Shown here one piece after another: positions 10,292 through 41,472 of a stretch of DNA of 48,527 nucleotides. Under the pieces are notes generated by a model. That model saw only the letters and a list, made by a program, of their open reading frames with translations. It made no database searches and was not told the DNA's origin. Made by a program: the position numbers and the translations under genes. Numbering within the stretch: the first letter of the stretch is position 1; every line of letters starts with the position of its first letter. The stretch is from an uncultured Anaerolineales bacterium. GTDB taxonomy: Bacteria > Chloroflexota > Anaerolineae > B4-G1 > SLSP01. The stretch covers positions 1 through 48,527 of the forward strand of contig CAZYYC010000002.1 of assembly GCA_964650935.1 (NCBI GenBank), read 5' to 3'.

Positions 10292-10303
10292 GGGCGGTTC
10301 GCG

Positions 10304-12499: not shown

Positions 12500-12503
12500 G
12501 GTG

Positions 12504-17290: not shown

Positions 17291-17302
17291 TTGTTTCCCC
17301 CC

Positions 17303-18235: not shown

Positions 18236-18260
18236 GCGGATGACCTCCGAACGGTAAAAA

Positions 18261-18316: not shown

Positions 18317-18330
18317 GTAATCAGGAGAGC

Positions 18331-19692: not shown

Positions 19693-19761
19693 AACGGATC
19701 CTCCTTGTGGCAAGTGCAGTAATGAAGGAAATGCGCCACCCGGGGCGGCGCGCGACACCTA

Positions 19762-23330: not shown

Positions 23331-24869
23331 TTACGTCGACGGGAGGTCGGCGAGCCGTGGATAGAGGGGGGCTAGGGCCCGATAGGTGGCGACGAAGAGG
23401 CTCGTGAGCTCGGTGTAGAGCGCGTGAGTCTTCGCGTTAGGCTCGAGTGTGGCAGCGATGGGGTTCATAGCTAGGGCCACGGAGGCATCGGGATAGAGGC
23501 CGAGGGCCAGGCCACCGGCAAGGGCAGCGCCCATCGAGGTGGCCTCCTGGAGAAGGGAGAGGCGGTGGACGGGCAGCTGGTAGATATCGGCGAGGATCTG
23601 GTTCCACAGCGGGCTGCGGGCGCCGCCGCCGATCAGGCGAATCGCATCCGGCTGGGCCCCCTGGGCCTGAAAGGCCTGCAGGATGAGGCGTAGGTTCAGG
23701 GCGACGCCCTCGAGAACGGCCCGAATGAGGTCGGCGCGCGTGTGCCGGATGGTCAGACCGATAAAGGCACCGCGGGCCAAGGGATCCCAGTGGGGGCTGC
23801 GCTCGCCAAGGAGATAGGGGAGGAAGAGCAGGCCGTTGGCGCCAGGAGGCGATTGGGCGGCCTGGGCGTTGAGGAGATCATAGGGGTTCAGGTCGAGCGT
23901 CGCTGCGGCGGTGATCGCCTGGGGACAGAGCTGGTCGCGGGTCCATTGGTAGGCAGCGCCGGCGGTCTGCATCGTGCCGTCGGGCATGAAGAGATCGGGG
24001 AGAATGTGGGCGAAGGTGAAGGTGGTGTAGTCAGGGTCGAAGATAGGTGCGGGCGTGGCGAGGGCGATCCACGAGGAGGCGCCGATGTAATTGTAGGCCG
24101 AGCCCGGAGCGACGACGCCGGCGCCGGCGGCGGCACACGCGCCGTCGCCGCCGCCGATCACGACGGGTGTGCCCGCCGGTACACCGGCCTCCGCCGCGAC
24201 GCTGGGCAGGACGGTGCCGACCACCGAGGCGGAGGGGCGAATCTCGGGCAGTTGGGCCGGATCGAGATCGGTGGCCTCGAGGATCTCGGGTGACCAATAA
24301 CCCGTCGAGAGATCATAGAGGTTCATACCGGAGGCGTCGGAGGGATCGGTCACGAAGGCGCCGGTGAGTCTTGCCACGATGGCATCCTTGGCGTGGGTGA
24401 ACTTGTAGGCACGGTGGAAGAGGTCGGGTTGGTGATCTCGTAGCCAGAGAATCTTCTCAACTGAGTAGGCAGGGCTGAGGCGGTGGCCTGTGATGCGGTA
24501 GATGTCGGCGAAGGGGATACGCGCGCCGAGGGCCTCCGTCTGGTCGGTGGCGCGTTGGTCGGCCCAGATGATGGCGGGCCGCAGGGGCCTAGCGTCGCGG
24601 TCGAGGGCGACGCAGCCCATCATCTGGCCCGAGAAGGTGATGCAGGCGATGTCGGAGGCCGGTGTGTTGGTGCGGGCGAGGAGCCGCCGGGTGGACGTGC
24701 AGATGGCGTCCCACCAATCCTGAGGGTTCTGTTCGGCCCAACGGGGTTGAGGATAGTCGGTATCGTAGGGATGAAAGGCGCTGCCGAGGAGGCGACCTTC
24801 GGCGTCATAGAGCGTGGCTTTGTTGCCGGTCGTGCCTAGGTCATGGGCCAGGATGAGATGGGGCATCAT
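23331..24869 (-). CDS. FGGY-family carbohydrate kinase (xylulokinase-like)
   Basis: HDLGTTGNKATLYD...WAEQNPQDWW...FSGQMMGCVALD...RPAIIWADQR...GGGARS. AGGAG lies before the tandem ATG ATG at 24869/24866. Confidence 0.85.
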   Translation of the reverse strand: MMPHLILAHDLGTTGNKATLYDAEGRLLGSAFHPYDTDYPQPRWAEQNPQDWWDAICTSTRRLLARTNTPASDIACITFSGQMMGCVALDRDARPLRPAIIWADQRATDQTEALGARIPFADIYRITGHRLSPAYSVEKILWLRDHQPDLFHRAYKFTHAKDAIVARLTGAFVTDPSDASGMNLYDLSTGYWSPEILEATDLDPAQLPEIRPSASVVGTVLPSVAAEAGVPAGTPVVIGGGDGACAAAGAGVVAPGSAYNYIGASSWIALATPAPIFDPDYTTFTFAHILPDLFMPDGTMQTAGAAYQWTRDQLCPQAITAAATLDLNPYDLLNAQAAQSPPGANGLLFLPYLLGERSPHWDPLARGAFIGLTIRHTRADLIRAVLEGVALNLRLILQAFQAQGAQPDAIRLIGGGARSPLWNQILADIYQLPVHRLSLLQEATSMGAALAGGLALGLYPDASVALAMNPIAATLEPNAKTHALYTELTSLFVATYRALAPLYPRLADLPST

Positions 24870-24884
24870 GGACTCCTGATGTGA

Positions 24885-25679
24885 TCACAGGGTGGCGTCC
24901 TCGACGAGAGCGACCAGGGCGGCGAGGGCCGCGGGTGCCTGGGTGGGCAGATCGTCCCAGCGCGACTCGATGGAGACGGGGCCATCGTAACCGCCAAGAA
25001 CCAGGGCGTGGAAAAAGGACAGCAGGGCGGGACAGGGCTCGCCCCCCGGCGGAAGGCGGGAGGGGACGGTAGCGATATGAACGTGATGCAGCAAGTGGGC
25101 GTTGGTGACGAGTTCGCCAAAGCTGTCGTTGTCGAGGGCCCAATGGTAGGCGTCGGCAAGGAGGCGAAGGTTGGGATGGTTCACCGCCTTGACGTAGCGG
25201 GCGCACTCACCGATGGAGTTGAGCACGTTGCACTCATCCCGGGCGCGGTTGAGCGGCTCCACGACGACGGTGACGTCTTGGTCTTGAGCCAGGGGGGCGA
25301 TCAGCTTTCCGAACCAGACGAGCTGCTTCCAAGCCGACCCGCGGTCGAAGCCGTCGGGAATCCGGCGAGCGCCACCTGACCCGAAGACGATCGTGCGGAT
25401 GCCGGCAGCCCGGGCGCGAGCGAAGGAAGTCAAGGCATAGGCCTCGAGTGCGGCGGCGTCGATGACCGGGCCCGTGACCTTGAGGGAGGCCGGGAGGAAG
25501 CAGTTGGCGGCAGGGGCAGGGAGCGGCGCAGCCCGGATGGTGGCAAGCGCCGGCTGGAAGGCGTCATCGCCCTCGACTGTCTTGAGATGATTCTGAACGT
25601 GGAGCTCGATGAAGTCAAAGCCGGCGGCCGCCAGCGTGGGTGCCGCTTGAGGATCTGCACAGACTCCGTATCGCATCAT
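24885..25679 (-). CDS. Sugar phosphate isomerase/epimerase family protein (xylose-isomerase-like TIM barrel)
   Basis: 264 aa. MRYGVCAD...AAGFDFIELHV...VVEPLNR...HVHIAT pattern of the AP-endonuclease-2/xylose-isomerase-like TIM fold. AAGGAG Shine-Dalgarno. Confidence 0.75.
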   Translation of the reverse strand: MMRYGVCADPQAAPTLAAAGFDFIELHVQNHLKTVEGDDAFQPALATIRAAPLPAPAANCFLPASLKVTGPVIDAAALEAYALTSFARARAAGIRTIVFGSGGARRIPDGFDRGSAWKQLVWFGKLIAPLAQDQDVTVVVEPLNRARDECNVLNSIGECARYVKAVNHPNLRLLADAYHWALDNDSFGELVTNAHLLHHVHIATVPSRLPPGGEPCPALLSFFHALVLGGYDGPVSIESRWDDLPTQAPAALAALVALVEDATL

Positions 25680-25714
25680 GATCTCCTTATGGGATGGGTG
25701 TGAGCAACAGGGAC

Positions 25715-26563
25715 TCAGGCATGCCCGCCCGCAAAGCTGACGCCGATGTCCGCAGCGACGTTGCGGATGTGCGCGGCGGCGAGCCGATAGTCCTCATCGG
25801 TGGCGAGATGCTCCACCATCAGCGGCGTATCGGGGTCGAGTGCGGCGAGTTCGGTCAGGAGGGTGGCGTAGTCGAGGTTGCCCTCGCCGGGACGGACCTC
25901 GTCGAGGTGGGTGGTGAGGCGTACGTCGAGTCGGGTGTCTTTGGCGTGACAGCTGCGGATGTGGGGGCCGAGCTTGGCGAACCATTCGCGGATCAAGGCG
26001 GCGTTGTCAAAGTAACGCTCGGGGCTGTTGATGACGTTGACCATGTCGATGTGCACGCCGAAGTGAGGATGGTCGATGGCCTGGAGCAGGGCGAGGTAGC
26101 TGTCGGCGGTGTGGGGATACATCCAGGGCATCGGCTCGAGGCTGTAGAAGGTGCGAGAAGGGTTGACGGCGCGGAGGATCGTGCGCACGGTGTCGACGAT
26201 GCGGTCGAAGGTGGCAGGCGTGAGGTTGTCGGGGTGAGGTCCGTCCCAAGGTTGACCGCAGGATCCGGCGATGTTGACGCAGCAGCGGGCGCCGATGTCG
26301 TCGGCGAGGGCGAGCTGAGTCTGGCAGGTGGCAATGGCCGCCCGGCGCTCGTCGGGATCGGCACTGAGCGGGTTACTCCATGCGCCGACCTCGGCGATGA
26401 TGATGTCCGCATCGCGCGCCGCCGCGACGTAGGCGCGACGGGTGGCCTCGTCGGCATCGGCGGAGATGGGGCAATAGGCTGCTGTGTAGCCCTGAGCTTG
26501 CAGGGCGGCGATCCAGGACGCCGGCGTGAGGGGCTCAGCGTGGATAGGGGCTCCGAGTCTCAT
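25715..26563 (-). CDS. Sugar phosphate isomerase/epimerase family protein (xylose-isomerase-like TIM barrel)
   Basis: 282 aa. ...IAEVGAWSNPLS...CCVNIAGS...FYSLEPMPW...HFGVHIDMVN...CHAKD pattern. AAAGGA Shine-Dalgarno. Confidence 0.7.
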   Translation of the reverse strand: MRLGAPIHAEPLTPASWIAALQAQGYTAAYCPISADADEATRRAYVAAARDADIIIAEVGAWSNPLSADPDERRAAIATCQTQLALADDIGARCCVNIAGSCGQPWDGPHPDNLTPATFDRIVDTVRTILRAVNPSRTFYSLEPMPWMYPHTADSYLALLQAIDHPHFGVHIDMVNVINSPERYFDNAALIREWFAKLGPHIRSCHAKDTRLDVRLTTHLDEVRPGEGNLDYATLLTELAALDPDTPLMVEHLATDEDYRLAAAHIRNVAADIGVSFAGGHA

Positions 26564-29493: not shown

Positions 29494-32331
29494 CTAGCCA
29501 AAGACGCCTTTGAGCAAGCTGAAAGCGCGCCTGGAGAGGGCTCGACTGATGACGGCGACCTCGAGCGTCACGATCACGGCGACGAAGATGGAGACGAGGT
29601 AGCGGACCTGATTCTCGGCGATGATGGGAATCAGGGGTGGGAGCGGGACGCCTTGCTGGCCCGTGAAGCGAAAGAGGGGGACGAAGAGATTGGAGGCGAA
29701 GGCGCCGATGAAGGCGCCGGCAATAGCCCCATAGGCCGTCAGGAAGGCGTATTCCATCACGACCTGAGCCGTGATCTGGCGACGGAGCATGCCGATGGCG
29801 CGTAGGATGGTGAAACGCTCAAGGCGCTCGCGGAGGGAGGCATAGGTGTAGATCAGGAGGCCCATCAGGGCCATGACGACCGCGGCGAGGAAGCCGATCG
29901 TGAGGGTGCCGAAGACGCCGACGCGCTCGAACTTGGCCTGCTCGGTGCGGATGTTATTGATGGCGTCGCCGCCGCGGCTGGTGGCGATATTGAGAACCGA
30001 GGGAATGGCGGCGAGCACCTCTCGCGGATCGGTGGTGCCGTCGACGCGAGCCCAGACACCGTGCGGGACGGGCATACCGACGAAGAAGTTGAGGTGATCG
30101 AGGTTGCCGATGATCGTGGGCTGCTCCTCCTCATAGACGGTGGGGAAGTAGTCGTAGGTGCCGACGACGACGAAGCTATCGGTGATATGGAATTCGTAGT
30201 TGACAGCGATGCCGATATTGATCGTGTCGCCGATAAAGAACTCGTTCTCGTCGAAAAGCTCCTGGGAGATGAGGACGGCATTGGAGTTGGCGGCGAGACG
30301 GTTCATCAGGGCACCGAGTGACTCGTCCGCGAAGTCATTGCGGAACCAAGCGACCTGAGGGAAGGTCAGGCGGTCGATGGCCATAAAACGACCGCGCACG
30401 TTTCCGGTATTCATCATCCGGGTCGTCATAGGATAGCTACCCACGGGCGTAGCCGCGGCGATGCCGGGCACATCCATGAAGTTCCCGGGCTGTGGGATCC
30501 ATTCGCCGGTGATGACGGTGGTGGGGGAGGTGCCGTCGGCTGAGAGCGGCATAACATTGAAGGCTAAGTCGGCTCCGGTCTCGTAGTAGATGCGATCGAC
30601 CAACCATTGGTCGAGGCTGGCTGCCATCGACAGCATGTAGACGCCGAGGGCCAGCGAGACGATGACGAGCAGGAGAGGATTGATGTAGGTGTGGCTGCGG
30701 CGACCCAGCTGGCGCAGAGCCAGGTGGGGTGTCGCCCAGGGGATGAGGTTGGCGATGAAGTCAAGGGCACGCATGATGAAGGGGAAGAGGCGGAGCGTCA
30801 TCAGCGAAGCGGTGAGAATGAAAAGGGCCGGGACGAGGATAAGGAGCGGGTCCTGGTAGAGATCGGCGGGGGAGGTGGTGATGAGCGCTGACAGGGAGCC
30901 ATGGCGCGAGACCTGCTGGTAGGCATAGTAGGTCGGGATGAGGAGCAGGAAGTCAAGATAGGCACGGTACCAGAAGGGGCCCTTCGAGGGGCGGGATCGG
31001 GAACGATCCACCTCCACGGCACTGAGGCGCGTCGCCCGGGCCGCCGGCACCATCCGCGAGATCAGCGCGACCAGCAGGGCGACGAGCGTGACCGGGACGT
31101 TGAGGCCCCGGAGTGCAACCGGCAGCGGCGCGCGACTGGTGAAATTGAGGAAGCTGGAGGTGTTGCCCATCACGCGTGCGAGAATCATCCCGAGCCCGAT
31201 ACCCAGGGGATAGCCAAAGAGGAAGAGAATGAGCTCCTCAAAGAGCGTGAGCGTGAGGATGCTGGTGGGACGCATACCGCGACCGACGAGCATCGCCGTC
31301 TCGCGTTGCTGCCACTGTGCGATGATAGCGGAGGAGAGGACCAGGAAGTAGAGGAGGAAGCCGAAGGAGGGGAGGTTGAAGGAGAGCAGGATCGCGGTGA
31401 GTGTGTCGCCGCGGGTCACAAAGGACTCCAGAGGACCAAGCGGTGGTGTGTTGATCCTCGCCCTGGGCAGATAGCGATTGATGACGACCTGGGCGCGGGA
31501 GAAACCGCGGAGGTACTCCTGAGCGAGCTCGGGATAGACGTGCGCATCGTCTAGAATAATGTGCCAGGCCACATACCAGCTGCGTGAGGGGACGAGGGGC
31601 TGGATGCGGCCAATGTAGTCGTCGCGCCGGACCAGCAGGACGTTCTGCAGGGTGGCGTCGGGGTTCTCAAACCAGTAGGTGCTGGAGGGATCCTCTGCTT
31701 GCCAGATGCCGACGATTCGGATGGGCGTCCCTGCCGATCGCACGTTGATGCCGATGGCGAGTTCATCGCCGACATTGATCCCCATCTTCTCGGCAAGGCG
31801 TGTATGCATCCACACATCAAGCACATCGCCTGAGGTGGTAGCGGGATCTAGTGGACCACCTTCGATGATGCGCATATGCTCGGAGACATTCTCGACGTAG
31901 GCGATGTCGACCGAACCCAGGAAGTCACCGGCAGCGTATTGAGTCTCGCCCTCGGGGGGCTGGAGCATCATATTGCCGCTGTGGATCTGCATCCTGAGAT
32001 GCTCAACGGGTAGGCCGACCTCTGCCGACAGCGTACTGGCGACGTTCTGAGAGAGTTCCTCACCCAGAGCGACTGAAATCGGGCTCTCAGATGTGGGGAA
32101 AGTGTAGACGCTCGTGGAAAAGGGCGGACGGCCCGTCATGCGGCTGAACTCGGCGAGCTCCTGGTCGAGGATGACCTGGTCGACAGCCTGGGCGAAGAAG
32201 GCGGCGTTGCTGACGAGTCCGACGGCGAGAATGACACCGAGAAGCGCAAGGAATGTGAGTCCGGGATGGTGAACTAACCGCTCGATGGCAAATTGGATCA
32301 CCCCGGCAATTCTGTATATCAGCTTGAGCAT
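29494..32331 (-). CDS. Large ABC-type permease with two FtsX/MacB-like domains (945 aa)
   Basis: N-terminal TM, then large external domains alternating with two 4-helix FtsX-like bundles (around aa 310-440 and aa 820-945). This is the typical FtsX-like permease family layout. No ATPase gene is adjacent. Confidence 0.75.
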   Translation of the reverse strand: MLKLIYRIAGVIQFAIERLVHHPGLTFLALLGVILAVGLVSNAAFFAQAVDQVILDQELAEFSRMTGRPPFSTSVYTFPTSESPISVALGEELSQNVASTLSAEVGLPVEHLRMQIHSGNMMLQPPEGETQYAAGDFLGSVDIAYVENVSEHMRIIEGGPLDPATTSGDVLDVWMHTRLAEKMGINVGDELAIGINVRSAGTPIRIVGIWQAEDPSSTYWFENPDATLQNVLLVRRDDYIGRIQPLVPSRSWYVAWHIILDDAHVYPELAQEYLRGFSRAQVVINRYLPRARINTPPLGPLESFVTRGDTLTAILLSFNLPSFGFLLYFLVLSSAIIAQWQQRETAMLVGRGMRPTSILTLTLFEELILFLFGYPLGIGLGMILARVMGNTSSFLNFTSRAPLPVALRGLNVPVTLVALLVALISRMVPAARATRLSAVEVDRSRSRPSKGPFWYRAYLDFLLLIPTYYAYQQVSRHGSLSALITTSPADLYQDPLLILVPALFILTASLMTLRLFPFIMRALDFIANLIPWATPHLALRQLGRRSHTYINPLLLVIVSLALGVYMLSMAASLDQWLVDRIYYETGADLAFNVMPLSADGTSPTTVITGEWIPQPGNFMDVPGIAAATPVGSYPMTTRMMNTGNVRGRFMAIDRLTFPQVAWFRNDFADESLGALMNRLAANSNAVLISQELFDENEFFIGDTINIGIAVNYEFHITDSFVVVGTYDYFPTVYEEEQPTIIGNLDHLNFFVGMPVPHGVWARVDGTTDPREVLAAIPSVLNIATSRGGDAINNIRTEQAKFERVGVFGTLTIGFLAAVVMALMGLLIYTYASLRERLERFTILRAIGMLRRQITAQVVMEYAFLTAYGAIAGAFIGAFASNLFVPLFRFTGQQGVPLPPLIPIIAENQVRYLVSIFVAVIVTLEVAVISRALSRRAFSLLKGVFG

Positions 32332-32442: not shown

Positions 32443-33777
32443 CTAGTTCGGCGGACCGTCGTCGGTTGATGAGCGTCTTCCTAGGTGAAGGTTCGGCCAG
32501 GGCCGATCCAGCCGGCTGTAGATGGCGCCTGCGACGAGGCGAAAGGTCGCCGATAGGAAGAACACGCCCGGCATGCCGATCCGGTCAGCGAGGGCGACGC
32601 CCACAAGCGGCCCCATAAAGGCAGCGACGTTAACCAGGATCGCGTAGATCGCGATGTAGGTGGGGCGTCGATCCGGCGGTGAGACGCGCAGCAGGATATT
32701 GTAGCGCGACAGCATCACGGCGGCGCTGACGAAGTTGGGGATGACGACGATGAGAAAGTTGATCGTCAACGACTGACTGAGCCCTGTGAGCAACGGGTAA
32801 AGGGCCATCAAGGGGGTGGTCAGGGCGATGATCTTGGCCTCTCCACGTCGTTCGACCTGGCGGGGCCAGAAGCGGTAGGCGATGATCGAGGCGATGCTCG
32901 CCAGTGTTGTCCGCCAGCCGATCCAGCTGTCCGTTGCGCCCAGGGTCTCGATGAAGTAGATCGTGAAGAGAGGCGAGGCCAGAGAGATGGCCCACTGGTA
33001 GGCGAAGGTACCCAGAACGATGACCGAGAACTCGCGCGAGCCACTGATGATCTCGCGGATCTCCCGAAGGTTCGGGGCGCTGGGCTTCTTGGCCGGCGCC
33101 GGGGGCTGGTGGAGGTCGATGCGGTTGACGTGCCAGGTGCTGACCGCCGCGCCGACGAAGGCGACCAGGAAGATGACCTGGTAGTTGAACGGAAAGGTGG
33201 CCCAATCGAGGAAACTGCCCATCAACGGGACGATGGAGAGCGTGATCAGATGCGTCATCGTGTTGCGCATGCCCACGACGCGCGCCCGCTGCTGCTCGGG
33301 CACGATGGCGGCGAAGAAGGTATCCCAGCCTGCTGAGGAGAGGATCGTGGGGATGCCCATCAAAATCACGAGCCAGACGAGCAGCGTCGCCTGGGGGATC
33401 TGACGGAGCAACGGCAGGCGACCGAGCCAGGGGAGCAGGAAGATCAGCAGGTAGAGACAGCGTCCGGCAGCGAGGCTCTTGACGATCAGTGACTTCCGAT
33501 CGGGCGAGCGCTCGATCATCTGAGCCGCCGGAATGCGCAACAGAACCATGAGCAGCGCCGGGATCGAGGCGCTCAATCCGATGAGCTGGTTCGATGCTCC
33601 CAAGCGAATGGCGTAGACGTTGATATAGGTGCTCGCCGCGGAGGCCAGCCCCAACCAGAAGAGGTCCTGATAGAGGTGCCAGATGTTGCGTTGCCGGACG
33701 TGCTGGGGATCCGGGCCCCGGAAGAAGGGCACGAAGGTGCCCGCGATCCACCAGCGAAGTCCCTTTAGAAGACTCAC
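32443..33777 (-). CDS. MFS transporter
   Basis: 444 aa with about 12 hydrophobic segments. GTG start at 33777, 24 nt after the SDR stop. It is the last gene of the oxidoreductase operon. Confidence 0.8.
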   Translation of the reverse strand: MSLLKGLRWWIAGTFVPFFRGPDPQHVRQRNIWHLYQDLFWLGLASAASTYINVYAIRLGASNQLIGLSASIPALLMVLLRIPAAQMIERSPDRKSLIVKSLAAGRCLYLLIFLLPWLGRLPLLRQIPQATLLVWLVILMGIPTILSSAGWDTFFAAIVPEQQRARVVGMRNTMTHLITLSIVPLMGSFLDWATFPFNYQVIFLVAFVGAAVSTWHVNRIDLHQPPAPAKKPSAPNLREIREIISGSREFSVIVLGTFAYQWAISLASPLFTIYFIETLGATDSWIGWRTTLASIASIIAYRFWPRQVERRGEAKIIALTTPLMALYPLLTGLSQSLTINFLIVVIPNFVSAAVMLSRYNILLRVSPPDRRPTYIAIYAILVNVAAFMGPLVGVALADRIGMPGVFFLSATFRLVAGAIYSRLDRPWPNLHLGRRSSTDDGPPN

Positions 33778-33801
33778 GATCGGTCTAGTGATCCTTCCTT
33801 A

Positions 33802-34581
33802 TCACCAAATGGTGTATCCGCCATCGACCACCAAGGTTGACCCGGTCATGTAGCTGGAAGCCGGCGAGGCCAGGAAGATCGCCGCCGGCGCCAGCTCCTC
33901 GGGTTCACCCGGTCGCTTCATCGGAATCGCATTGATCCAGACCCCACCCATGGCGGGGTCCTCAAAGAAGGGGCGTGCCATCGCCGTGTTCATATAGCCG
34001 GGCGCAATCGCGTTGACCCTGATATGGTAGGGGGCCCACTCCGACGCCAGGGATTTGGTGAGGTGGATGACGGCTGCCTTTGAGGCGTTGTAGGAGGCCT
34101 GGGCCTGCGGGACGTTGACGATGAGCCCGGACATCGAGGCGATGTTGATGATGCTGCCCTGCCGGCGCTCGATCATGTGGCGCCCGACAGCTTGGCAGCA
34201 GAAGAAGACGCCGGTCACATTGACGTCGAGCACGCGGCGCCAGTCCTCAGGCTGTACGTCCTCGGCCTCCAGGTGTTGTACGATCCCGGCGTTGTTCATC
34301 AGGAAGTCGATCTTGCCGAAGGTGCTCAAGGCCGTGTCCACCATCGCCTGTACGCTGGACCGGTCGCTGACGTCCGTCGGGACGAACAGCGACCGGCGGC
34401 CCATATCTGCGATCTCGGCGGCGGTCTCGGGCCCGGTCTCCGGATTGATCTCGGCAACGACGATGTCGGCCCCGGCCTCGGCAAAGGCACGGCAGAAGGT
34501 CTTGCCGAGTCCCTGGCCTCCGCCGGTGACGATGCCGACCCGGCCGGCGAGCGAGAACGAATCCAGGATCATCCCGTTCAC
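33802..34581 (-). CDS. SDR-family oxidoreductase (classical short-chain dehydrogenase)
   Basis: VTGGGQGLG (TGxxxGxG), NNAG, and a Ser...YNASK catalytic triad. The track start GTG 34581 abuts the upstream stop. ATG 34572 behind AGGTGA is an equally good start. Confidence 0.88.
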   Translation of the reverse strand: MNGMILDSFSLAGRVGIVTGGGQGLGKTFCRAFAEAGADIVVAEINPETGPETAAEIADMGRRSLFVPTDVSDRSSVQAMVDTALSTFGKIDFLMNNAGIVQHLEAEDVQPEDWRRVLDVNVTGVFFCCQAVGRHMIERRQGSIINIASMSGLIVNVPQAQASYNASKAAVIHLTKSLASEWAPYHIRVNAIAPGYMNTAMARPFFEDPAMGGVWINAIPMKRPGEPEELAPAAIFLASPASSYMTGSTLVVDGGYTIW

Positions 34582-35403
34582 CTAGATGAGATCCGACAGG
34601 AAGCTGATCGCCTGGCGGATGTCCGCGATCTGCTGCGGGCCGGTGATCTCGCGTTCGATGGTCAGTGCGCCACTGTAGCCCAGTCCCTTGAGCTTCTTGA
34701 TGAGCAGCGGGAAGTTGACGCGCCCCTCGCCCAAGGGCTTTTCCACACCGAGCTCGCGACCGCCGGTGGGGTACTCGCCGTCCTTGGCGTGCACGCCGCG
34801 TACGTAGCTGCCGAAGATATCGAGCGCGTCGATAGGGTTGGCCTTGCCGTACATCAGAAGGTTCGCGGGATCGAGGTTCACGCCGAGGTTGGCGTATCCC
34901 AGGTCCTCGAAGACGCGCAACATCACGACCGGTGTCTCCTGCCCCGTCTCGAACCAGAGCTCGACATCGCGCTCGCCGCAATACTCCGCCACCTCGCGCA
35001 GGGCGTCGAGCAGCGGGGGATAGAGCGGATTGGTCAGGCTTTCGGGGATGAAGCCCACGTGCGTCGTGATGCTCGGCACGCCTACCCGGACGGCGAAGTC
35101 GCAGCCCTCCTTGAGCGTGGCCACGCGTTCGGCTTGGGTTTCGAGAGGCACCAGACCGATCAGGACGGGCCCCTGGACGAAGTCCCAGATGTGCGGACCC
35201 TCCATACCGGTCCAGATGGTGGTGATCTCAATGCCGTCCTTGTCGGCAGCGGCTGCCAGGCGGTCGGCCATCTCTGCGTTGAGCAGATTGCGCTGCCAGC
35301 AGCTCACCTGACACGTGGGGAGCTCAAATTCTTTGACCTTGTTGATGGTCGCCTCGGGACCCTCCTCGAGCGGGGCCATAACCCCTAACTTCAGCTTTGT
35401 CAT
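34582..35403 (-). CDS. Sugar phosphate isomerase/epimerase family protein (xylose-isomerase-like TIM barrel)
   Basis: 273 aa. ...VPSITTHVGF...LWFETGQE...LGVNLDPANL...GVHAKD pattern. Confidence 0.75.
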   Translation of the reverse strand: MTKLKLGVMAPLEEGPEATINKVKEFELPTCQVSCWQRNLLNAEMADRLAAAADKDGIEITTIWTGMEGPHIWDFVQGPVLIGLVPLETQAERVATLKEGCDFAVRVGVPSITTHVGFIPESLTNPLYPPLLDALREVAEYCGERDVELWFETGQETPVVMLRVFEDLGYANLGVNLDPANLLMYGKANPIDALDIFGSYVRGVHAKDGEYPTGGRELGVEKPLGEGRVNFPLLIKKLKGLGYSGALTIEREITGPQQIADIRQAISFLSDLI

Positions 35404-35444
35404 TTTCGTCTCCTTAACTACAGATGCTGTGTGTTCGCGTGCTG

Positions 35445-36536
35445 CTACGGCTGTTGGTTCATTCGGATGACGGCTCGGAGCACGCCGTCGCCATAGCGGT
35501 TGACCAGCGCAAAGGCCTGATCCGCCTGCTCGGCGGAAAAGGCGTGGGTCGCCATCCGGGCGACGTCGATCGTCCCCGACTTCACGAGCGTGATTGCACG
35601 TGGATAGGTGTGTTTCATCCGTCGCACGAGCTTGATGGTCAAGCCCTTGCGTCGCACGACCGAAGCCGACATCCTCATCGTATCATCGTCGGGGATGCCC
35701 ACAACCACGACTCTGCCACCGGGTCGCGTGACCTGAGCCGCCTGGTCCGGTGTCTCGTCAGCGCCGGCGGCCTCAAAGGCCACGTCGACGCCCCGTCCAC
35801 CCGTGGCCTTGAGGATGGCAGCCACGACATCTTCGCTGGTGGGATCGAAGGCTACATCGGCTCCCCCAGAGAGCGCCACCTCACGCCGGTAGGCGAGCGG
35901 TTCTGTGACGTAGACGGCGCCGGCACCTGCCGCACGCGCTAGCCTTGCCGTGAAGAGCCCGATGGGACCGGCCCCCAGGACCGCGACGGTCTCCCCGACC
36001 TTGAGGTGCGCCAGATCGACCGTGTGGATCGCCACGCCAAGGGGCTCGAGCATCGCGCCCTCATCAGGCGTCATCCCCTCGGGCAGCGGAAAGCAGTTCT
36101 CAGCGGGCATGCGGATGGTGTCCGCCAGAGCGCCGACGTGGTTCGGCGATCCGCAGAAGAGGACCTCGGGGCAGAGGTTGGGATGACCGTGGAGGCAGGA
36201 CTCACAGGTGCCGCACGGGATGGCGGGCTCGACCGCCACGAGTTGACCGATCTCGAGTCCGTCCACACCATCACCCACCGCAGCGACCCAGCCCGAGAAC
36301 TCATGGCCCATCACCATCCCGGCATCGACGATGGCGCTGCCGATCGCGCCCTCATGGTAGTAGTGGTGGTCTGAGCCGCAGATCCCGACAGAGGCCACTT
36401 TCAGCAGGACCTCGCCGGGTCCGGGATGGCCCGGATAGGGCATCTGGATGGCGCGCAGATCGTGCAGGCCGAAGAGACCGATAGCGCGCATGGTGGGCGC
36501 GGAGGTGTCATCCTGGTGGCTGGGGTGCATTGTCAT
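35445..36536 (-). CDS. Zinc-dependent medium-chain alcohol/polyol dehydrogenase (sorbitol / L-idonate dehydrogenase-like)
   Basis: GICGSDHHYY (catalytic Zn Cys-His), GHEFSG, a structural Zn Cys cluster (CGTCESCLHGHPNLC), and NAD fold VLGAGPIGL. Confidence 0.88.
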   Translation of the reverse strand: MTMHPSHQDDTSAPTMRAIGLFGLHDLRAIQMPYPGHPGPGEVLLKVASVGICGSDHHYYHEGAIGSAIVDAGMVMGHEFSGWVAAVGDGVDGLEIGQLVAVEPAIPCGTCESCLHGHPNLCPEVLFCGSPNHVGALADTIRMPAENCFPLPEGMTPDEGAMLEPLGVAIHTVDLAHLKVGETVAVLGAGPIGLFTARLARAAGAGAVYVTEPLAYRREVALSGGADVAFDPTSEDVVAAILKATGGRGVDVAFEAAGADETPDQAAQVTRPGGRVVVVGIPDDDTMRMSASVVRRKGLTIKLVRRMKHTYPRAITLVKSGTIDVARMATHAFSAEQADQAFALVNRYGDGVLRAVIRMNQQP

Positions 36537-36543
36537 CTTGGTC

Positions 36544-37542
36544 CTATCTGATGCGCGTGTTCTGTTCGCTCTCCCACATGTCGGCGTTGGTGCCGAAGGC
36601 GGCTTTGAGCGGGTCGGTGGCCTCGTTCAGGGCAGTAAGGACATCGGCTGGGAGCTGCAACTCGGCAGCTTTGACGTTCGCCGTGATCTGCTCGGGGCTG
36701 CGGGCGCCGGCAATGACGGTGGCGACCGCGGGCTGGGCCAACACCCAGGCGAGAGCGACGTTGGTCATAGGTAGGTCGGCCTCGGTGCAGATCTCGCGGA
36801 TGCGTGTGAGTGCCGTCGCGGTCTCGGCCTCGGCGCCCGGACCCCCATGGCGCGTCATCGGGCGCCGCTCGGAGGAGAAGTGGCGTGTGCGGGCGCGCTC
36901 GTCGGGGATGTCATCGATGGTGGCGAACTTGCCGGTGAGAATCCCGTGCAGCAGAGGGCTGTAGGCCGCTACGCTGACGCCGTGCTCAAGGCAGGCGGGG
37001 ATGATCTCCTGCTCGATGGAGCGGAAGAGCAGGTTGTAGGCTAGTTGATTGAGCTCGATGCGACCGACCTGCAGGAGCGCGGACAGGTCCTGCTTGCCGA
37101 AGTTGGAGCAGGCCGCGAAGCGCACTTTGCCCTCGTTCTGGAGCCGGGCCATCTCGCCCAGCGTCTCCTCGAAGGGCACCTCCCAGTTGGGCCAGTGGAG
37201 GTAGTAGACATCGATATAGTCGGTCTGCAGGCGCTGCAGGCTCTCTTCACACGCCCGGCGCAGCTCTGCGGGGCGTGCGTGATCGCCGGATGCCTTGGTG
37301 GCGATGATCACGTCCTGACGCATATCCTTGAACGCTTTGCCGATCAGCTCCTCGGAGCGCCCGCCGCCGTAGGCCTCCGCACTGTCGAAGAAGTTGACGC
37401 CGACCTCGACCGCCGTGTGCAGGGCAGCGATAGCTTCCTGCTCGTCTTGCTCTCCCCAGACCTGGTCGCCTCCAATGGCCCAGCAGCCCATACAGATGGT
37501 GCTGACCTCAAGGTCGCTGCGTCCGAGTTTACGATACTCCAT
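36544..37542 (-). CDS. Aldo/keto reductase family oxidoreductase
   Basis: MEYRKLGRSDLEVSTICMGCW...NFFDSAEAYGGGRSEELIGKA...YYLHWP. AAGGAGG Shine-Dalgarno 8 nt upstream. Confidence 0.9.
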   Translation of the reverse strand: MEYRKLGRSDLEVSTICMGCWAIGGDQVWGEQDEQEAIAALHTAVEVGVNFFDSAEAYGGGRSEELIGKAFKDMRQDVIIATKASGDHARPAELRRACEESLQRLQTDYIDVYYLHWPNWEVPFEETLGEMARLQNEGKVRFAACSNFGKQDLSALLQVGRIELNQLAYNLLFRSIEQEIIPACLEHGVSVAAYSPLLHGILTGKFATIDDIPDERARTRHFSSERRPMTRHGGPGAEAETATALTRIREICTEADLPMTNVALAWVLAQPAVATVIAGARSPEQITANVKAAELQLPADVLTALNEATDPLKAAFGTNADMWESEQNTRIR

Positions 37543-37620
37543 GGTGTTGACCTCCTTGATTGTGTCGTAGCCGATTATAGGTGACGTGGTGGGTAACTCA
37601 AGGTCGCGCGCGCTTGCCTC

Positions 37621-38904
37621 TCAGGAAAGGAACTTCGCCTCGATCGCCGCCAGGGCCTCGTCGCCGATGGGGACCATCTCACCGATGTGCGAGGTGTCGA
37701 TGAGGGCCGTCGCACTGAACTCGGCGACCTCCAGCCGGTCGAAGGCCTGCGGCAGGTCCTTACCGGTGGTGAGGATCGCGTCGTTCTGCAGTAGAGCGAC
37801 GGGTACCTGCTCGCCGAGGCGACGCGACAGCGTCTCCCCATCATCGAACTGCTCGCCATAGGGGACGGTAGGGATGTCGCGCAGCACGATGTAGCTCTCG
37901 GGGATGGTGCGGGTGTCGAGTTTCTTCCCGGTGATGCTGTAGGCGGTTGCGCTCGGCGGCTGAGCTGTGATGATCGCGCCGATCTCGGGATGGTCGCGGT
38001 AGATCGTCATATGCAGGCGTACCGCGCGGCTGGGTTGTTTGCGCCGCTCGCGTCGCCCGTTGCGGACGAGCACGATGTCCTCGATATCCAGGTACTTGCG
38101 GTCGACACCGAAGGGCGTGATGAGGAAACTGTCGCCATCGATGCGGGCTGAGACCGTGCCTTCGGTACTGGTCATCAGCCGCTGGTCGTAGGCGCGATGC
38201 ACAACGTCGACGACCTGCTTGCGCAAGGTGAGCTCCGCCGTGGCGTGAGTCTTGGGGTTGAACTTGGGCAATTTCTCGCCGCGCCGGTGTGAGCGCTCGA
38301 TCTGCCCATCGGTTAAAGAGCCGACCTCGCCCAAGGTTCTGGCCCGTATCAGGGTGCGCGCGCAGAAGTCGAGCGTCTCAAACCGCTGAAAGGCCTCGAG
38401 CAGCGACGCGCCTCCCGAGACGACACCGTGATTTTCGAGCAGGACGATGTCGACGCCATCGCCGAAGGTGGCGGCGATGGCGCTGCCCAGCTCCTCGCTG
38501 CCGGGGAGGGCATAGGGCGCATAGCCGACGGTGCCGCAGACGTAGTGGGCCTGGGGAATGATCTTGGTATTGGGGATGGTGCGGACGATGCTGAAGGCGA
38601 CCAGCGCCTGGGGATGAGCGTGGACGATGGCGCGGAAGTCGGGTCGTCGGGCGTAGATCGCGCGGTGGAAAGGGTACTCCGACGAGGGCCTGTGAGGACC
38701 GATGGTGGTGCCGTCCGGCTTGACGCAGATGATGTCGCTGGGCGTCAGCGCGCCTTTGTCGATGCCGGCGGGCGTGATCCACATATCCCCCTCGGGATCC
38801 AACACCGAGAGATTGCCCCCGGATGTCGTCGTCATGCTGTAGCCGTAGATGCGCTTCATGATGGTGACGATCTGTTCGCGCGGCGGCAAGAGATCGAATC
38901 TCAT
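37621..38904 (-). CDS. Tandem-domain class II aldolase/adducin-family protein (intact N-domain, degenerate C-domain)
   Basis: Domain 1 carries the FucA-type catalytic set: PSSE76...H95-A-H97...ENH159G. Domain 2 is homologous but has A294, T313, Q315 and D375 at those positions. Confidence 0.85.
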   Translation of the reverse strand: MRFDLLPPREQIVTIMKRIYGYSMTTTSGGNLSVLDPEGDMWITPAGIDKGALTPSDIICVKPDGTTIGPHRPSSEYPFHRAIYARRPDFRAIVHAHPQALVAFSIVRTIPNTKIIPQAHYVCGTVGYAPYALPGSEELGSAIAATFGDGVDIVLLENHGVVSGGASLLEAFQRFETLDFCARTLIRARTLGEVGSLTDGQIERSHRRGEKLPKFNPKTHATAELTLRKQVVDVVHRAYDQRLMTSTEGTVSARIDGDSFLITPFGVDRKYLDIEDIVLVRNGRRERRKQPSRAVRLHMTIYRDHPEIGAIITAQPPSATAYSITGKKLDTRTIPESYIVLRDIPTVPYGEQFDDGETLSRRLGEQVPVALLQNDAILTTGKDLPQAFDRLEVAEFSATALIDTSHIGEMVPIGDEALAAIEAKFLS

Positions 38905-38977
38905 CGTGTGCCTCTGCTTTCGTTACGTGACGGGCGACGATTGTCCGGTGATCCGGATCGTTCGTTATTCGTTGCGT

Positions 38978-40108
38978 CTATAGCTCCACGGGTTGTCCGC
39001 CGAGTTTCGCGGACTCGCGGATCGCTAGGATCAGTGCCTGGTCGAGGCGCGCCTGGTGGGGACCGTAGGTCGGATCGGTGTCGTCGCGCACGGCGTCGAC
39101 GAGGCTCAGCAGACAGCCGGCGACGCCGATCTCGTCATCGTGCCATTGGGGACCGTGCCCCTGGATCCGGGGACGGAAAGGGTTCTCCCAGGTCACGATG
39201 GGCAGGTCCGGGTCGCCGGTATGGGCGACCATCGCCACGAGCGCGCCGCCATCGCAGCGCTCCCAGCGACGTTCCACCGTGATGAAGCGCGGCGCTTCAC
39301 CCCCGGGCGCCAGTAGCGAGAGTCTTTCCTCGACATCGAGCCCTACACCGGTTGTGAGCCCCATGCCCTTCTCCGCCATGAAGCGGCTGCTGCGCCACCA
39401 GCGAAGCGCTGAGTCGTAGCCGACGTCGGTCCAGTGGAAAACGCCCACCTGACCGCCCTCAAACTCGATGATGCCGTGTTCCTGGGTCTCGGTGCGCGGC
39501 CCACGGGTGCCGGCATTCATCGCCCAGTGGGGTGCGAGGTCGTAGGAGTGGATTGAGCCGGTGACGCGGATGGGTCGAGCATCGAAGCCGAGGTAGCTGC
39601 GCATGACGCTGATGCCGTGGTAGCCATGCCCCCCATAGTCGTTGAAGGAGGTGTAGACCTGGCCGAAGAGGCCTGAGGCGATCAACTTCAGCTTGAGCTG
39701 CTCGAGGGGACGGCGGTGAAATTGCTCGGCCACCTCCACCTTGAGATGCTGCTCCTCGGCGGCGTGGATGATCGCGTCGGCTTCGTCGAGATCGTGCGCA
39801 ATCGGGGTCTCCAGGAGGACGTGCAGCCCATGGTCGACAGCTAGCTTGCCGACCACGCCGTTGGCGCTGTAGGCGACGGAGACGATGCCGATCGCGGGTT
39901 CCGTCTCCGTCATCAGACGGTCCAGGTCGGTGAACCAGGGCGCGTTCAGTTCGTTCCCGAGGCGCTGTGCTGAGGCATCACTGCGGCCCCAGACCGAGAC
40001 CAACTCGACGTCCTGGGGAAGGGCTTTGAGGATCGGCCCATAGAGGTAACCGGAACGTCGGGCCGTGCCGATGATCGCGACGCGAAGTGGGGAGCCGCTC
40101 TTTGCCAT
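38978..40108 (-). CDS. Gfo/Idh/MocA-family oxidoreductase
   Basis: Preferred start is ATG 40108, behind GGAGGAGG. LRVAIIGTARRSGYLYG Rossmann N-terminus and ETPIA motif. The track ORF adds 10 aa, to 40138. Confidence 0.85.
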   Translation of the reverse strand: MAKSGSPLRVAIIGTARRSGYLYGPILKALPQDVELVSVWGRSDASAQRLGNELNAPWFTDLDRLMTETEPAIGIVSVAYSANGVVGKLAVDHGLHVLLETPIAHDLDEADAIIHAAEEQHLKVEVAEQFHRRPLEQLKLKLIASGLFGQVYTSFNDYGGHGYHGISVMRSYLGFDARPIRVTGSIHSYDLAPHWAMNAGTRGPRTETQEHGIIEFEGGQVGVFHWTDVGYDSALRWWRSSRFMAEKGMGLTTGVGLDVEERLSLLAPGGEAPRFITVERRWERCDGGALVAMVAHTGDPDLPIVTWENPFRPRIQGHGPQWHDDEIGVAGCLLSLVDAVRDDTDPTYGPHQARLDQALILAIRESAKLGGQPVEL

Positions 40109-40188
40109 AACACTACCTCCTCCGTTAAGTGATCCCACAATCGTGCGGCCCCATTATAGGGTCACAGGGAGGAGGGGGCAATTGGGTG

Positions 40189-41472
40189 CTATGTTGCGAG
40201 GTGGGTAAGGAAGCGATCGACGTCGTAGAGGGCCGACTGGGCGGGCGGGGAGATCTGCAGCGCGATGAGGTCGAAGGCATGTTCGACCATCGGGAGCTTG
40301 ACGATCGCGGCTTCAGCTCCGGCTGCCACGAGCGACCGGTGAAGCCCGATGACGTCCTCAACCGGGATGACGTGGTCATGCAGGCCCTGGATGAGCAGGG
40401 TGGACGGGCAATGGGGGCCGATGTGGGCGATGGGCGAGTAGGCGAGCAGGGCCTCGTCAAGCTGAGACAGCGGAGCCCCGAAGAGTCGCTGGGCGAGTTT
40501 GGACCATGGCAGATAGCCCTCTTGCGGGAAGTAGCCGAGGGCCTTGCCTGCCGCTGTCGCCAGCGGATGCATCGACTGCTCGGACCAGTGATCGGTCAGG
40601 GTGCGCAGATCGGCGACGGGGTAGTAGGCGACAACGCCGCGGACCGACGTGTCGACGCCGCGGACGTCCCCGGGCGTGTAGGTGGGATCGCCCGAGGTGT
40701 AGGCAGCGAGCAAGGCCAGGTGCCCGCCCGCCGATCCGCCTGCGAGCACAACGCGGGTGGGATCCACGCCAAGCGCCGGTCCGTTGGCCTTGAGCCAAGC
40801 GACGGCACGCTTGACGTCACCGAGCATGCCGAGCATATCGGTCTCGCGGGCCATGCGGTAGGCGACATCTATGATGACGTGGCCCTGGGCAGTCAGATGG
40901 CGGAAAAAGGGGCGCGTCAGGACGTCTTTGTCGAAGGCCTGCCAGGCACCACCGTGCAGGAAGACGATACCGATGTCCGAGCGCGGTACGCCGGGTTCGG
41001 GCTGCCAGAGATCGCAGAGCAGGTCACGATCGGTACCCGGCACCGTCGCAAAGGTGACGTTGCGGACCACGCGTGAGCGGGGCCGCGTCGCGACCTGACC
41101 GAGCCGCCAGCGCCGGCTCAACCGTCTTGACTCGGGTTCGGATTTGACCGGGAAGGCCCGGTCAACGTCGCTCTCGGGTGTGGTGATGCGCTGGATATAG
41201 TGGGCGCCCAGCAGGGCCCCCAACACCCCCAAGGCGCCGATGTGGGGCCGCCGCGTCCGACGGGCGAGCAGGGTGCCGACCCACCCCAACAGGGCCAACA
41301 CCGGTGCGAGGGCGCCGCCCAGGATCTTGAGACCATAGCCGATCAGATTCGTCGAGAGGCCGCGGGTCCGCGGCTTGACGTAGAGCCAGCCGGTGAGGGC
41401 GGCAGAGGTGATGCAGAGCGCCGTCGTCAGACGATTGAGGCGGTTCCGTGGTTCGCTGTGGTCCTGGGTCAT
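40189..41472 (-). CDS. Membrane-anchored alpha/beta hydrolase (esterase/lipase, HGG type)
   Basis: About 3 N-terminal TM helices, then FLHGGAW (oxyanion HGG), GGSAGGH (GxSxG nucleophile), GLHDHV (Asp) and MVEHAF (His). Confidence 0.8.
   Translation of the reverse strand: MTQDHSEPRNRLNRLTTALCITSAALTGWLYVKPRTRGLSTNLIGYGLKILGGALAPVLALLGWVGTLLARRTRRPHIGALGVLGALLGAHYIQRITTPESDVDRAFPVKSEPESRRLSRRWRLGQVATRPRSRVVRNVTFATVPGTDRDLLCDLWQPEPGVPRSDIGIVFLHGGAWQAFDKDVLTRPFFRHLTAQGHVIIDVAYRMARETDMLGMLGDVKRAVAWLKANGPALGVDPTRVVLAGGSAGGHLALLAAYTSGDPTYTPGDVRGVDTSVRGVVAYYPVADLRTLTDHWSEQSMHPLATAAGKALGYFPQEGYLPWSKLAQRLFGAPLSQLDEALLAYSPIAHIGPHCPSTLLIQGLHDHVIPVEDVIGLHRSLVAAGAEAAIVKLPMVEHAFDLIALQISPPAQSALYDVDRFLTHLAT

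Follow-up and report, generated by a model that had tools for sequence, protein, structure and literature searches.

Here we show that a seven-gene block on a contig of an uncultured Anaerolineales bacterium (minus strand, positions 32443-40108 of a 48.5-kb window, the window being the whole stretch of DNA that was analysed) combines two genes that persist among its relatives, one for a tandem class II aldolase and the other for a small TIM barrel of the xylose-isomerase-like type, with five genes that are each missing in some of them. Judged by sequence and gene order, the block is better described as a mosaic, lineage-specific accessory cluster around this aldolase and TIM barrel than as the single fixed seven-gene pathway put forward in a preliminary description of the same DNA. 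Tentatively, and at somewhat less than an even chance, we read it as a carbohydrate-catabolism cluster with two promoters and an FGGY-family kinase acting in trans.

The open reading frame (ORF) list gives seven co-directional genes, each family assignment being backed by Pfam:
32443-33777, minus strand: MFS_1 transporter (major facilitator superfamily, MFS), 444 aa; PF07690, E 4.7e-30
33802-34581, minus strand: short-chain dehydrogenase/reductase (SDR), 259 aa; PF13561, E 3.6e-72, also PF00106
34582-35403, minus strand: xylose-isomerase-like TIM barrel (TIM), 273 aa; PF01261, E 7.4e-27
35445-36536, minus strand: Zn-dependent medium-chain dehydrogenase/reductase (MDR), 363 aa; PF08240 and PF00107
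36544-37542, minus strand: aldo/keto reductase (AKR), 332 aa; PF00248, E 1.5e-75
37621-38904, minus strand: tandem class II aldolase (ALD), 427 aa; PF00596 in two stretches, E 1.6e-80
38978-40108, minus strand: Gfo/Idh/MocA-like protein (Gfo), 376 aa; PF01408, E 4.2e-16, N-terminal domain only

Recomputed in the order from Gfo to MFS, the intergenic gaps are 73, 78, 7, 41, 0 and 24 nt, the 0-nt gap lying where the SDR start abuts the TIM stop. For Gfo, the ATG at 40108, which is preceded by GGAGGAGG, was preferred over the GTG at 40138 that opens the longest ORF. Pfam and NCBIfam scans detected a kinase domain in none of the seven products, no regulator gene is encoded within the block, and the nearest kinase gene, of the FGGY family (23331-24869), is separated from the MFS stop by 7.6 kb. 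The genes, families, six gaps, Gfo start, kinase-free block and nearest kinase of the preliminary description were thereby all reproduced.

Every NCBIfam match of the seven proteins scored under its curated cut-off (LgdA, 27.6 bits vs 650; IolG, 29.9 vs 355; IolM, 210 vs 450; YdjG, 197 vs 550; OtnC, 165 vs 250; UlaE/SgbU-type epimerase, 19 vs 272), and PDB sequence searches likewise gave no assignment. The earlier statement that the combination matches no nameable pathway therefore stands, with scores far under the cut-offs and no orthology to a characterised pathway reached in either search; nor did we find a description of this enzyme combination, or of tandem class II aldolases, in the literature. 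Candidate routes for inositol (IolG/IolM/IolO), levoglucosan, C-glycosides, tetronate, ydj substrates and L-ascorbate/L-xylulose gave no score above a curated cut-off and were rejected. S-adenosylmethionine salvage (the dihydroxyacetone phosphate (DHAP) shunt or 5-deoxyribose route), suggested by metK, was also rejected: metK is merely syntenic housekeeping, and MtnA/DrdI and MtnK/DrdK are not present.

The mosaic make-up is evident from nine related Anaerolineae loci, in which Gfo, AKR, MDR, SDR and MFS are each missing somewhere, while the aldolase, the TIM barrel and a downstream FtsX-like permease are constant. Among the seven cluster genes, only the aldolase and TIM genes are kept in every related locus with enough sequence. 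The gene orders that illustrate this are as follows:
L007: metK-esterase-Gfo-ALD-AKR-MDR-[extra canonical Gfo]-TIM-SDR-MFS-FtsX
L008: as L007, without SDR and MFS
L009: ALD-AKR-MDR-TIM-SDR-FtsX (no MFS)
L010: esterase-ALD-AKR-MDR-Gfo3-TIM-FtsX (no Gfo, SDR or MFS)
L004: ALD-UROD-AKR-TIM-SDR-MFS-FtsX (no Gfo or MDR)
L087/88: esterase-acyltransferase-Gfo-ALD-Gfo3-TIM-FtsX (no AKR, MDR, SDR or MFS)

Linkage of the aldolase to TIM persists over 70% to 100% aldolase identity, and adjacency of Gfo and aldolase is kept in L006, L007, L008 and L087/88. Translated Gfo remnants are still found upstream of the aldolase in L009 and L010, so the gene was lost there through decay. A canonical Gfo, carrying the EKP motif, directly precedes TIM in five relatives and in L089 (named loci L007, L008, L010, L087 and L089); this TIM-paired gene is missing in the window, where MDR and TIM are 41 nt apart.

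A 945-aa duplicated permease of the FtsX/MacB type (29494-32331, minus strand) follows the cluster in L004, L007-L010, L087, L092 and L093, and an FtsX permease (29% identical) with an HlyD-like adaptor also follows a homologue of the cluster Gfo in L094; the association may reflect a functional link or plain synteny. Directly upstream of the promoter-like site of Gfo lies a BD-FAE/Abhydrolase_3 esterase gene (427 aa, 40189-41472, minus strand), syntenic in L007, L008, L010 and L087, whose product may deacylate a carbohydrate substrate of the cluster. A URO-D family gene (PF01208) stands between aldolase and AKR in L004 (11354-12406) and another near the aldolase in L005 (248-1345), with MTTB fragments nearby in L004; such neighbours may hint at methylated-sugar or methyl-transfer chemistry.

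The aldolase itself is built from two halves:
38275..38904, minus strand: N-terminal catalytic half, aa 1-210, which aligns with FucA structures
37621..38259, minus strand: C-terminal degenerate half, aa 216-427 plus the stop codon

In the N-half, the motifs GGNLS, TPAG, PSSE, HAH, HY and NHG are all in place by comparison with FucA structures, at the positions of FucA N29, T43/G44, S71/S72/E73, H92/H94, Y113 and H155. Across 67-81 homologues, which span at least 8 phyla, the catalytic residues of this half do not vary: H95, H97, H159 and E76, the counterparts of the zinc-binding histidines and Glu73 of FucA, are invariant in 67 homologues, and the phosphate-site residues of GGN, TPAG and PSS in 81. 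The counterpart of FucA Tyr113 is likewise invariant across phyla. The phosphate site of FucA comprises G28, N29 and G44 (Rodionova et al. 2013, PMC3870299), and the N-half retains the equivalents of G28, N29, T43, G44, S71 and S72. An intact site leads us to expect a phosphorylated substrate, as had been anticipated before from the enzyme family. The Glu of PSSE is invariant, which is the FucA type; in AraD-type 4-epimerases, Asp replaces this Glu (PSSD motif), and AraD models gave 79-87 bits against cut-offs of 257-389. Besides the OtnC score given above, the aldolase obtained 151 bits with the FucA model (cut-off 264) and 151 with that of Ru1P aldolase (cut-off 300), and it fell under the cut-off for all curated FucA, RhaD, Ru1P aldolase, OtnC, MtnB and AraD models, which places it in none of these subfamilies.

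The C-half by itself matches E. coli FucA over the full length (E 1e-11), so the fold is retained, but the zinc ligands and the catalytic Glu are not: relative to FucA, S72 is changed to R, E73 to A, H92 to T, H94 to Q and H155 to D. The replacement residues (R293, Q315, N374 and D375) and an IPES loop are themselves conserved among the 67-81 homologues. Since the catalytic residues are gone and what replaced them is conserved, the C-half is predicted to be catalytically dead yet under selection. An AlphaFold2 model of the whole aldolase (predicted local distance difference test score 94.3, predicted template-modelling score 0.92) is confidently resolved into two domains, and PDB fold matches (YgbL, FucA, DrdA) each span one half only, with a template-modelling score of ~0.42 on the query; no single-chain tandem precedent occurred among them. 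The top structural match is YgbL (6voq), which carries PSKE where the aldolase N-half carries PSSE. The dead C-half may replace the neighbouring subunit of a FucA-type tetramer, and we propose from the active-site residues that the tandem enzyme would cleave a ketose-1-phosphate with release of DHAP.

The tandem architecture is widespread. All of the best 120 database matches of the aldolase are 412-437 aa long, and a genome scan returned 182 aldolase loci at 49-95% identity, in Anaerolineae, Caldilineaceae, Spirochaetota, Planctomycetota, Paenibacillus, Victivallis/Lentisphaeria, Bacteroidales, Acidobacteriota and Kiritimatiellae. The nearest genome is a metagenome-assembled Anaerolineae genome from an anaerobic membrane bioreactor (L006; aldolase 95% identical). 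When all window proteins were compared by tblastn with 85 aldolase loci, the other six genes accompanied the aldolase only in close Anaerolineae relatives (aldolase at least 70% identical). All-versus-all BLAST clustering of neighbour ORFs from 82 loci proved too fragmented, with antisense ORFs arising from GC-rich DNA, and was replaced by a Pfam scan of 104 same-strand neighbour proteins. No dominant aldolase partner across phyla was found among these 104; FGGY was commonest (6), followed by GH65 (4), SDR (4), RhaA (2) and RhaM (2).

In four phyla the aldolase gene lies in or beside L-rhamnose gene clusters. L074 (Terriglobia) has the order RhaM-ALD-RhaI-RhaB (481 bits with the RhaI model, 420 with the rhamnulokinase model), L005 has RhaM-RhaA-ALD and L070 (Bacteroidales) has RhaA-ALD, while in L053 (Paenibacillus sp. 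S-38) the aldolase is 573 nt upstream of rhaEW-rhaI-rhaB-deoR-lutA. These four loci thus have the phosphorylative L-rhamnose context, which the window does not. Fucose-isomerase-like genes occur near an orthologue of the window's FGGY gene (L091) and near the Gfo homologue in L094.

The FGGY gene belongs to a unit that we propose as the source of a kinase in trans:
23331..26563, minus strand: TIM3-TIM2-FGGY unit
23331-24869, minus strand: FGGY; TIGR01312 (XylB), 402 bits, above the cut-off of 380
24885-25679, minus strand: TIM2; weak PF01261/PRK13210 matches
25715-26563, minus strand: TIM3; weak PF01261/PRK13210 matches

TIM2 and TIM3 also match D-psicose 3-epimerase, IolO and L-ribulose-5-phosphate 3-epimerase weakly. 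The order ...TIM-SDR-(MFS)-FtsX-(Gfo2)-GlgA-TIM3-TIM2-FGGY is conserved in L092 and L093 (FGGY 72-73% identical), which makes the kinase a stable neighbour of the cluster; in L092, PF13204 DUF5060/apiosidase-like and beta-lactamase-fold genes are inserted between TIM2 and FGGY. FGGY proteins 47-49% identical to it are encoded with the tandem aldolase in five Spirochaetota loci, namely L030 (SDR-FGGY-ALD, with overlapping junctions), L021 (SDR-MDR-FGGY-ALD), L026 (SDR-MDR-FGGY-(YihS/SftI-like isomerase)-ALD), and L027 and L028, which have arrays of a similar kind. Junctions in L021, L027 and L030 overlap or measure at most 69 nt, and the Spirochaetota arrays are flanked by a divergent YdjG-like AKR, a ROK protein, an aldose epimerase and an iron-dependent alcohol dehydrogenase. 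An ALD-FGGY-SDR order is found in L063 (Acidobacteriota). Isomerase, kinase, aldolase and reductase acting in turn is the logic of the fucose, rhamnose and sulfoquinovose Embden-Meyerhof-Parnas-type pathways. The kinase that the aldolase appears to want is thus most likely the FGGY protein encoded 7.6 kb downstream, and the paradox raised earlier, of an aldolase on phosphorylated ketoses in a block without a kinase, is most simply resolved in trans by this syntenic gene. The deoxy-sugar or polyol theme raised with it is plausible from the rhamnose-gene and SDR/MDR/FGGY contexts.

A consensus scan placed two promoter-like sites in the block and its upstream flank:
40153..40181, minus strand: TTGCCC-17-TATAAT, upstream of Gfo
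37574..37601, minus strand: TTGAGT-16-TATAAT, in the 78-nt gap between aldolase and AKR

Across the whole window, the minus strand carries TATAAT only four times (40158, 37579, 8052 and 3892) and the plus strand never, and two of these four are the sites upstream of Gfo and AKR. The Gfo-upstream TATAAT is kept at the same position in L007 and L008, and in L010, from which Gfo is deleted. Upstream of AKR, CTATAATC is invariant in the window, L004 and L006-L010 amid divergent flanks, as is an AGGAGG ribosome site; the TATAAT is 34 nt upstream of the ATG of AKR, and AAGGAGG follows it. Conservation of these boxes between diverged flanks points to two promoters, and the block probably comprises two transcription units, Gfo-ALD and AKR-MDR-TIM-SDR-MFS. 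In co-directionality, gaps of 0-78 nt and lack of an internal terminator the block resembles an operon, but the putative internal promoter upstream of AKR, conserved in seven loci, and the second site upstream of Gfo weaken the view that all seven genes form one unit. No convincing minus-strand terminator was found, which leaves room for read-through between the units. GC skew is positive throughout the window, whose genes are almost all encoded by the minus strand.

The Gfo protein stands apart from characterised members of its superfamily. Pfam detects only its N-terminal Rossmann domain, its PDB sequence matches are weak (best E 1e-7; DgpA1, 7.5e-5; LgdA-type 6a3f, 3.6e-3), and its family is small, with 90 clusters at E<=1e-30 in a HMMER search of 1.84 billion representatives. 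Among 40 aligned members, ETP replaces the canonical EKP (E100 and P102 invariant, T101 nearly so), the nucleotide loop reads GxGxR, and GHxYHG and WxNP are also conserved. The EKP and GxGxxG motifs of NAD(P)-dependent Gfo dehydrogenases are therefore missing from the cluster protein, and with the UDP-GlcNAc 3-dehydrogenase model (48 bits vs 450), as with the LgdA-type levoglucosan dehydrogenase and IolG models above, it scored under the cut-off. The second Gfo of the window (28255-29358) and the extra Gfo of the relatives are of the canonical EKP type. A dehydrogenase function of the cluster Gfo is doubtful on these motifs, so that of the four redox enzymes originally counted, four superfamilies are indeed present, but this member is unproven as a working dehydrogenase. 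Its homologue in L094, the one informative context (other contigs are ~2 kb), is about 47-49% identical (47% by tblastn, 49% by phmmer) and is located behind a fucose-isomerase-like gene and an AKR gene.

The only close solved relative of TIM is the uncharacterised 3tva (E 3.8e-47); its similarity to the 2-hydroxy-3-keto-glucal hydratase 8ro4 is very weak (E 0.008), none to LgdB or DgpB/C was significant in PDB searches, and its homologues carry the JGI label 'L-ribulose-5-phosphate 3-epimerase'. AKR is closest to the YdjG-type methylglyoxal reductase model in NCBIfam and, in the PDB, to AKR11-type aldehyde reductases such as IolS and GSP69; its gene is absent in L087. The best NCBIfam matches of MDR are threonine 3-dehydrogenase, IolM and idonate 5-dehydrogenase, all under cut-off, and its gene is absent in L004 and L087. 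Neither SDR (absent in L008, L010 and L087) nor MFS (absent in L008, L009, L010 and L087) has a specific NCBIfam assignment, a sugar-porter match for MFS included; MFS homologues 26-29% identical are encoded near the aldolase in the Spirochaetota loci L017, L019 and L021.

Taken as a carbohydrate-catabolism cluster, the block would operate as follows: (i) a sugar or polyol would enter the cell, possibly via MFS, the likeliest substrates being of the 6-deoxyhexose or pentose type; (ii) one or more TIM-barrel enzymes and NAD(P)-dependent oxidoreductases would turn it into a ketose; (iii) the XylB-like FGGY protein, whose gene belongs to the same co-directional syntenic array 7.6 kb further downstream, would phosphorylate the ketose; (iv) the zinc site of the N-half would cleave the ketose phosphate into DHAP and a short aldehyde (L-lactaldehyde or glycolaldehyde); (v) the dead but conserved C-half would serve as a built-in partner subunit; and (vi) AKR, MDR and SDR would be interchangeable peripherals that either act on the aldehyde, reducing or oxidising it, or supply the ketose from an aldose or polyol. 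Such peripheral and interchangeable roles would explain why each of the three can be lost in relatives. Our best guess for the substrate is a deoxy-hexose- or pentose-derived ketose phosphate, giving DHAP and lactaldehyde or glycolaldehyde. A broader proposal, which we regard as possible but rather unlikely, is that RhaD/FucA and RhaEW are joined by a third type of (deoxy)ketose-1-phosphate aldolase, widespread and uncharacterised, which the tandem protein represents and in which the dead copy replaces the homotetramer neighbour, and that in anaerobic Chloroflexi it anchors an undescribed deoxy-sugar, branched-sugar or polyol route with the ETP-type Gfo-like protein and the 3tva-type TIM barrel.

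A number of observations weigh against this catabolic interpretation. Most of the ~75 loci in other phyla have a solitary aldolase gene amid housekeeping genes, with neighbours that include TypA, malic enzyme and EPSP synthase and with housekeeping contexts in Victivallis and Paenibacillus, so the general role of the aldolase could be other than sugar catabolism. L053 already has a RhaEW aldolase, so the tandem enzyme there need not be a simple RhaD substitute, and RhaA, RhaI, FucI, rhamnulokinase and fuculokinase were found nowhere in the 48.5-kb window. The FGGY protein scores as a xylulokinase, and its product, if D-xylulose-5-phosphate, is no substrate for an aldolase; in other Anaerolineae (L090, L091), the FGGY orthologues have unrelated neighbours. 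The five Spirochaetota loci belong to one related lineage and amount to few independent observations, and their SDR, MDR and AKR are ~30% identical to the window enzymes or undetectable, a level that indicates shared superfamilies and not orthology.

In an alternative that we consider unlikely though still serious, there is no common pathway: co-directional genes would have been gained and lost independently, and the aldolase would have a general or housekeeping function such as aldehyde or deoxy-pentose salvage. Dispensability of all genes except aldolase and TIM in some relative, the syntenic housekeeping character of the flanking metK, FtsX-like permease and GlgA genes, the mostly solitary aldolase outside the clade, the two separate promoter-like sites and the lack of a regulator in the block all fit it. 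It accounts poorly for the AKR-MDR (7 nt) and TIM-SDR (0 nt) junctions, which indicate co-translation, for the persistent aldolase-TIM linkage and for the recurrence of a similar superfamily set (MFS, AKR, SDR, MDR, FGGY and aldolase) in Spirochaetota; and the rhamnose-gene linkage in four phyla is far beyond chance for a housekeeping gene.

Quite unlikely, in our judgement, is that the aldolase-family protein acts as a decarboxylase or isomerase on an acid-sugar or tetrulose phosphate (OtnC/OiaC/LerI-like) in a D-apiose, tetronate or tetritol route, with Gfo-like proteins of the ApsD/ApnO type. Apiose routes reportedly use a Gfo/Idh/MocA protein, a TIM-barrel isomerase, an FGGY kinase and a class II aldolase-family decarboxylase. 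The 3-oxo-tetronate-4-phosphate decarboxylase model (OtnC) is the top NCBIfam match of the aldolase and YgbL its best structural match; apiosidase-like genes (PF13204) adjoin the cluster in L004 and, as noted, occur inside the TIM2-FGGY interval of L092, and split transketolase genes lie near the aldolase in L005. However, the OtnC score is summed over two domains and still under the cut-off, the FucA-like PSSE differs from the PSKE of YgbL, the apiosidase-like genes occur in two relatives only and PF13204 is a broad family, and neither a DUF1537 kinase, a RuBisCO-like protein, a lactonase nor a decarboxylase above cut-off was present among the window genes scanned.

The original model, a kinase-independent single operon of seven genes performing redox isomerisation or 3-keto-glycoside chemistry with cleavage of a non-phosphorylated ketose, now seems highly improbable. 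Gfo and TIM genes are both present, a canonical Gfo directly precedes TIM in relatives, TIM bears its faint resemblance to the keto-glucal hydratase and the block has no kinase. Against this, the cluster Gfo lacks the catalytic Lys (ETP, not EKP), its DgpA- and LgdA-like matches (E ~1e-4 to 1e-3) cover the Rossmann part only, and the canonical Gfo that precedes TIM in relatives has been lost from the window; the phosphate-binding residues of the aldolase are invariant, an internal promoter-like site is conserved and a syntenic kinase is nearby. An L-xylulose/L-ribulose-5-phosphate route after E. coli LyxK-SgbU-SgbE, in which polyol dehydrogenases yield L-xylulose and an FGGY kinase, a TIM 3-epimerase and an aldolase-family 4-epimerase lead to D-xylulose-5-phosphate, shares the family set of those three enzymes (FGGY, PF01261 and PF00596), the JGI label of the TIM homologues and weak TIGR00542 and PRK13210 matches, but is hardly credible given 19 bits against 272 for the TIM 3-epimerase model, an invariant FucA-type Glu in place of the AraD/SgbE Asp and a retained FucA HY motif.

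Elsewhere in the window, a glycan-active run (8633-14801, minus strand) encodes a GHL10 protein (PF02638), a 731-aa protein with sub-threshold GH88/GH127 matches and a 765-aa protein without a Pfam match; it adjoins an ABC sugar transporter (16403-19758) and two-component genes, and may be a sugar-supplying polysaccharide utilisation region. A 1598-aa ORF on the plus strand (42967-47763) is an Lhr-type DEAD-box helicase, from Pfam analysis of an identical gene in L001, and long minus-strand ORFs overlapping it (e.g. 43426-45366, no Pfam match) are probably antisense artefacts of GC-rich DNA.

Anaerobic digesters are dominated by Anaerolineae, whose sugar metabolism is deduced almost wholly from annotations of this kind. 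The names that pipelines give to the genes in question ('L-fuculose-phosphate aldolase', 'L-ribulose-5-phosphate 3-epimerase' and 'xylulokinase') have no evidence behind them. Three of the protein families encoded here lack a characterised member: the tandem aldolase (at least 8 phyla, 182 loci in one scan), the ETP-type Gfo-like protein and the 3tva-type TIM barrel, which is abundant in Anaerolineae. Assigning a substrate to the aldolase would correct thousands of annotations and might add a third aldolase type to deoxy-sugar catabolism. The block also illustrates that what looks like an exotic 'operon' can turn out to be a patchwork in which dispensable accessory genes surround a small core that is conserved.

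Comparison with known systems places the cluster among familiar designs. In the fungal oxidoreductive pentose pathway, an aldose reductase of the AKR type, L-arabitol and xylitol MDRs, an L-xylulose reductase of the SDR type and xylulokinase act together, and a sugar is isomerised through alternate reduction and oxidation steps that precede its phosphorylation. The window encodes AKR, MDR, SDR and a XylB-like FGGY protein, but the fungal pathway is eukaryotic and needs neither aldolase nor TIM, and serial action of the three window oxidoreductases is only hypothetical. The LgdA/LgdB/LgdC and DgpA/DgpBC systems pair a Gfo with a TIM protein, as relatives of the window do by keeping a canonical Gfo upstream of TIM; they differ in that the window's own Gfo is without the EKP lysine and matches in the Rossmann fold only, the paired canonical Gfo is missing and TIM has no significant PDB similarity to LgdB or DgpB/C. 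The E. coli ydjEFGHIJKL cluster, known from work of the Raushel laboratory, combines the AKR YdjG, two Zn-MDRs, a kinase, an aldolase and MFS transporters, its kinase YdjH being of the PfkB type and its aldolase YdjI an FBP-type class II enzyme of a different fold family. YdjG is the best NCBIfam model for both the window AKR and the Spirochaetota AKR, but the score of the former marks it as an analogue and not an orthologue.

RhaEW (YuxG), a class II aldolase fused to an SDR lactaldehyde dehydrogenase, occurs in the rhamnose loci of Chloroflexi and Bacilli (PMC3870299). RhaEW and the tandem protein are both non-canonical PF00596 aldolases that carry a second, fused domain, and RhaEW works with an SDR; in the window, however, the fusion partner is an inactive aldolase domain and the SDR is separate, three genes away. 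The two are not equivalent, both being encoded side by side in Paenibacillus L053.

Relative to the L-fucose and L-rhamnose regulons of E. coli (FucI/FucK/FucA/FucO and RhaA/RhaB/RhaD/RhaO), the window has none of the dedicated isomerases or rhamnulo- and fuculokinases, its kinase is XylB-like and unlinked, its aldolase is a tandem with a dead copy, and its aldehyde handlers would be AKR, MDR and SDR instead of an iron-dependent alcohol dehydrogenase. The proposed logic is nevertheless the same, with a ketose, an FGGY kinase, a PF00596 aldolase that yields DHAP and an aldehyde, and an oxidoreductase; the catalytic and phosphate residues of FucA are kept in the aldolase N-half, and in rhamnose operons the tandem aldolase fills the aldolase slot (L074) or adjoins RhaA (L005, L070). 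What is new here is the set of three uncharacterised enzyme subfamilies, and the catabolic logic proposed around them is already familiar.

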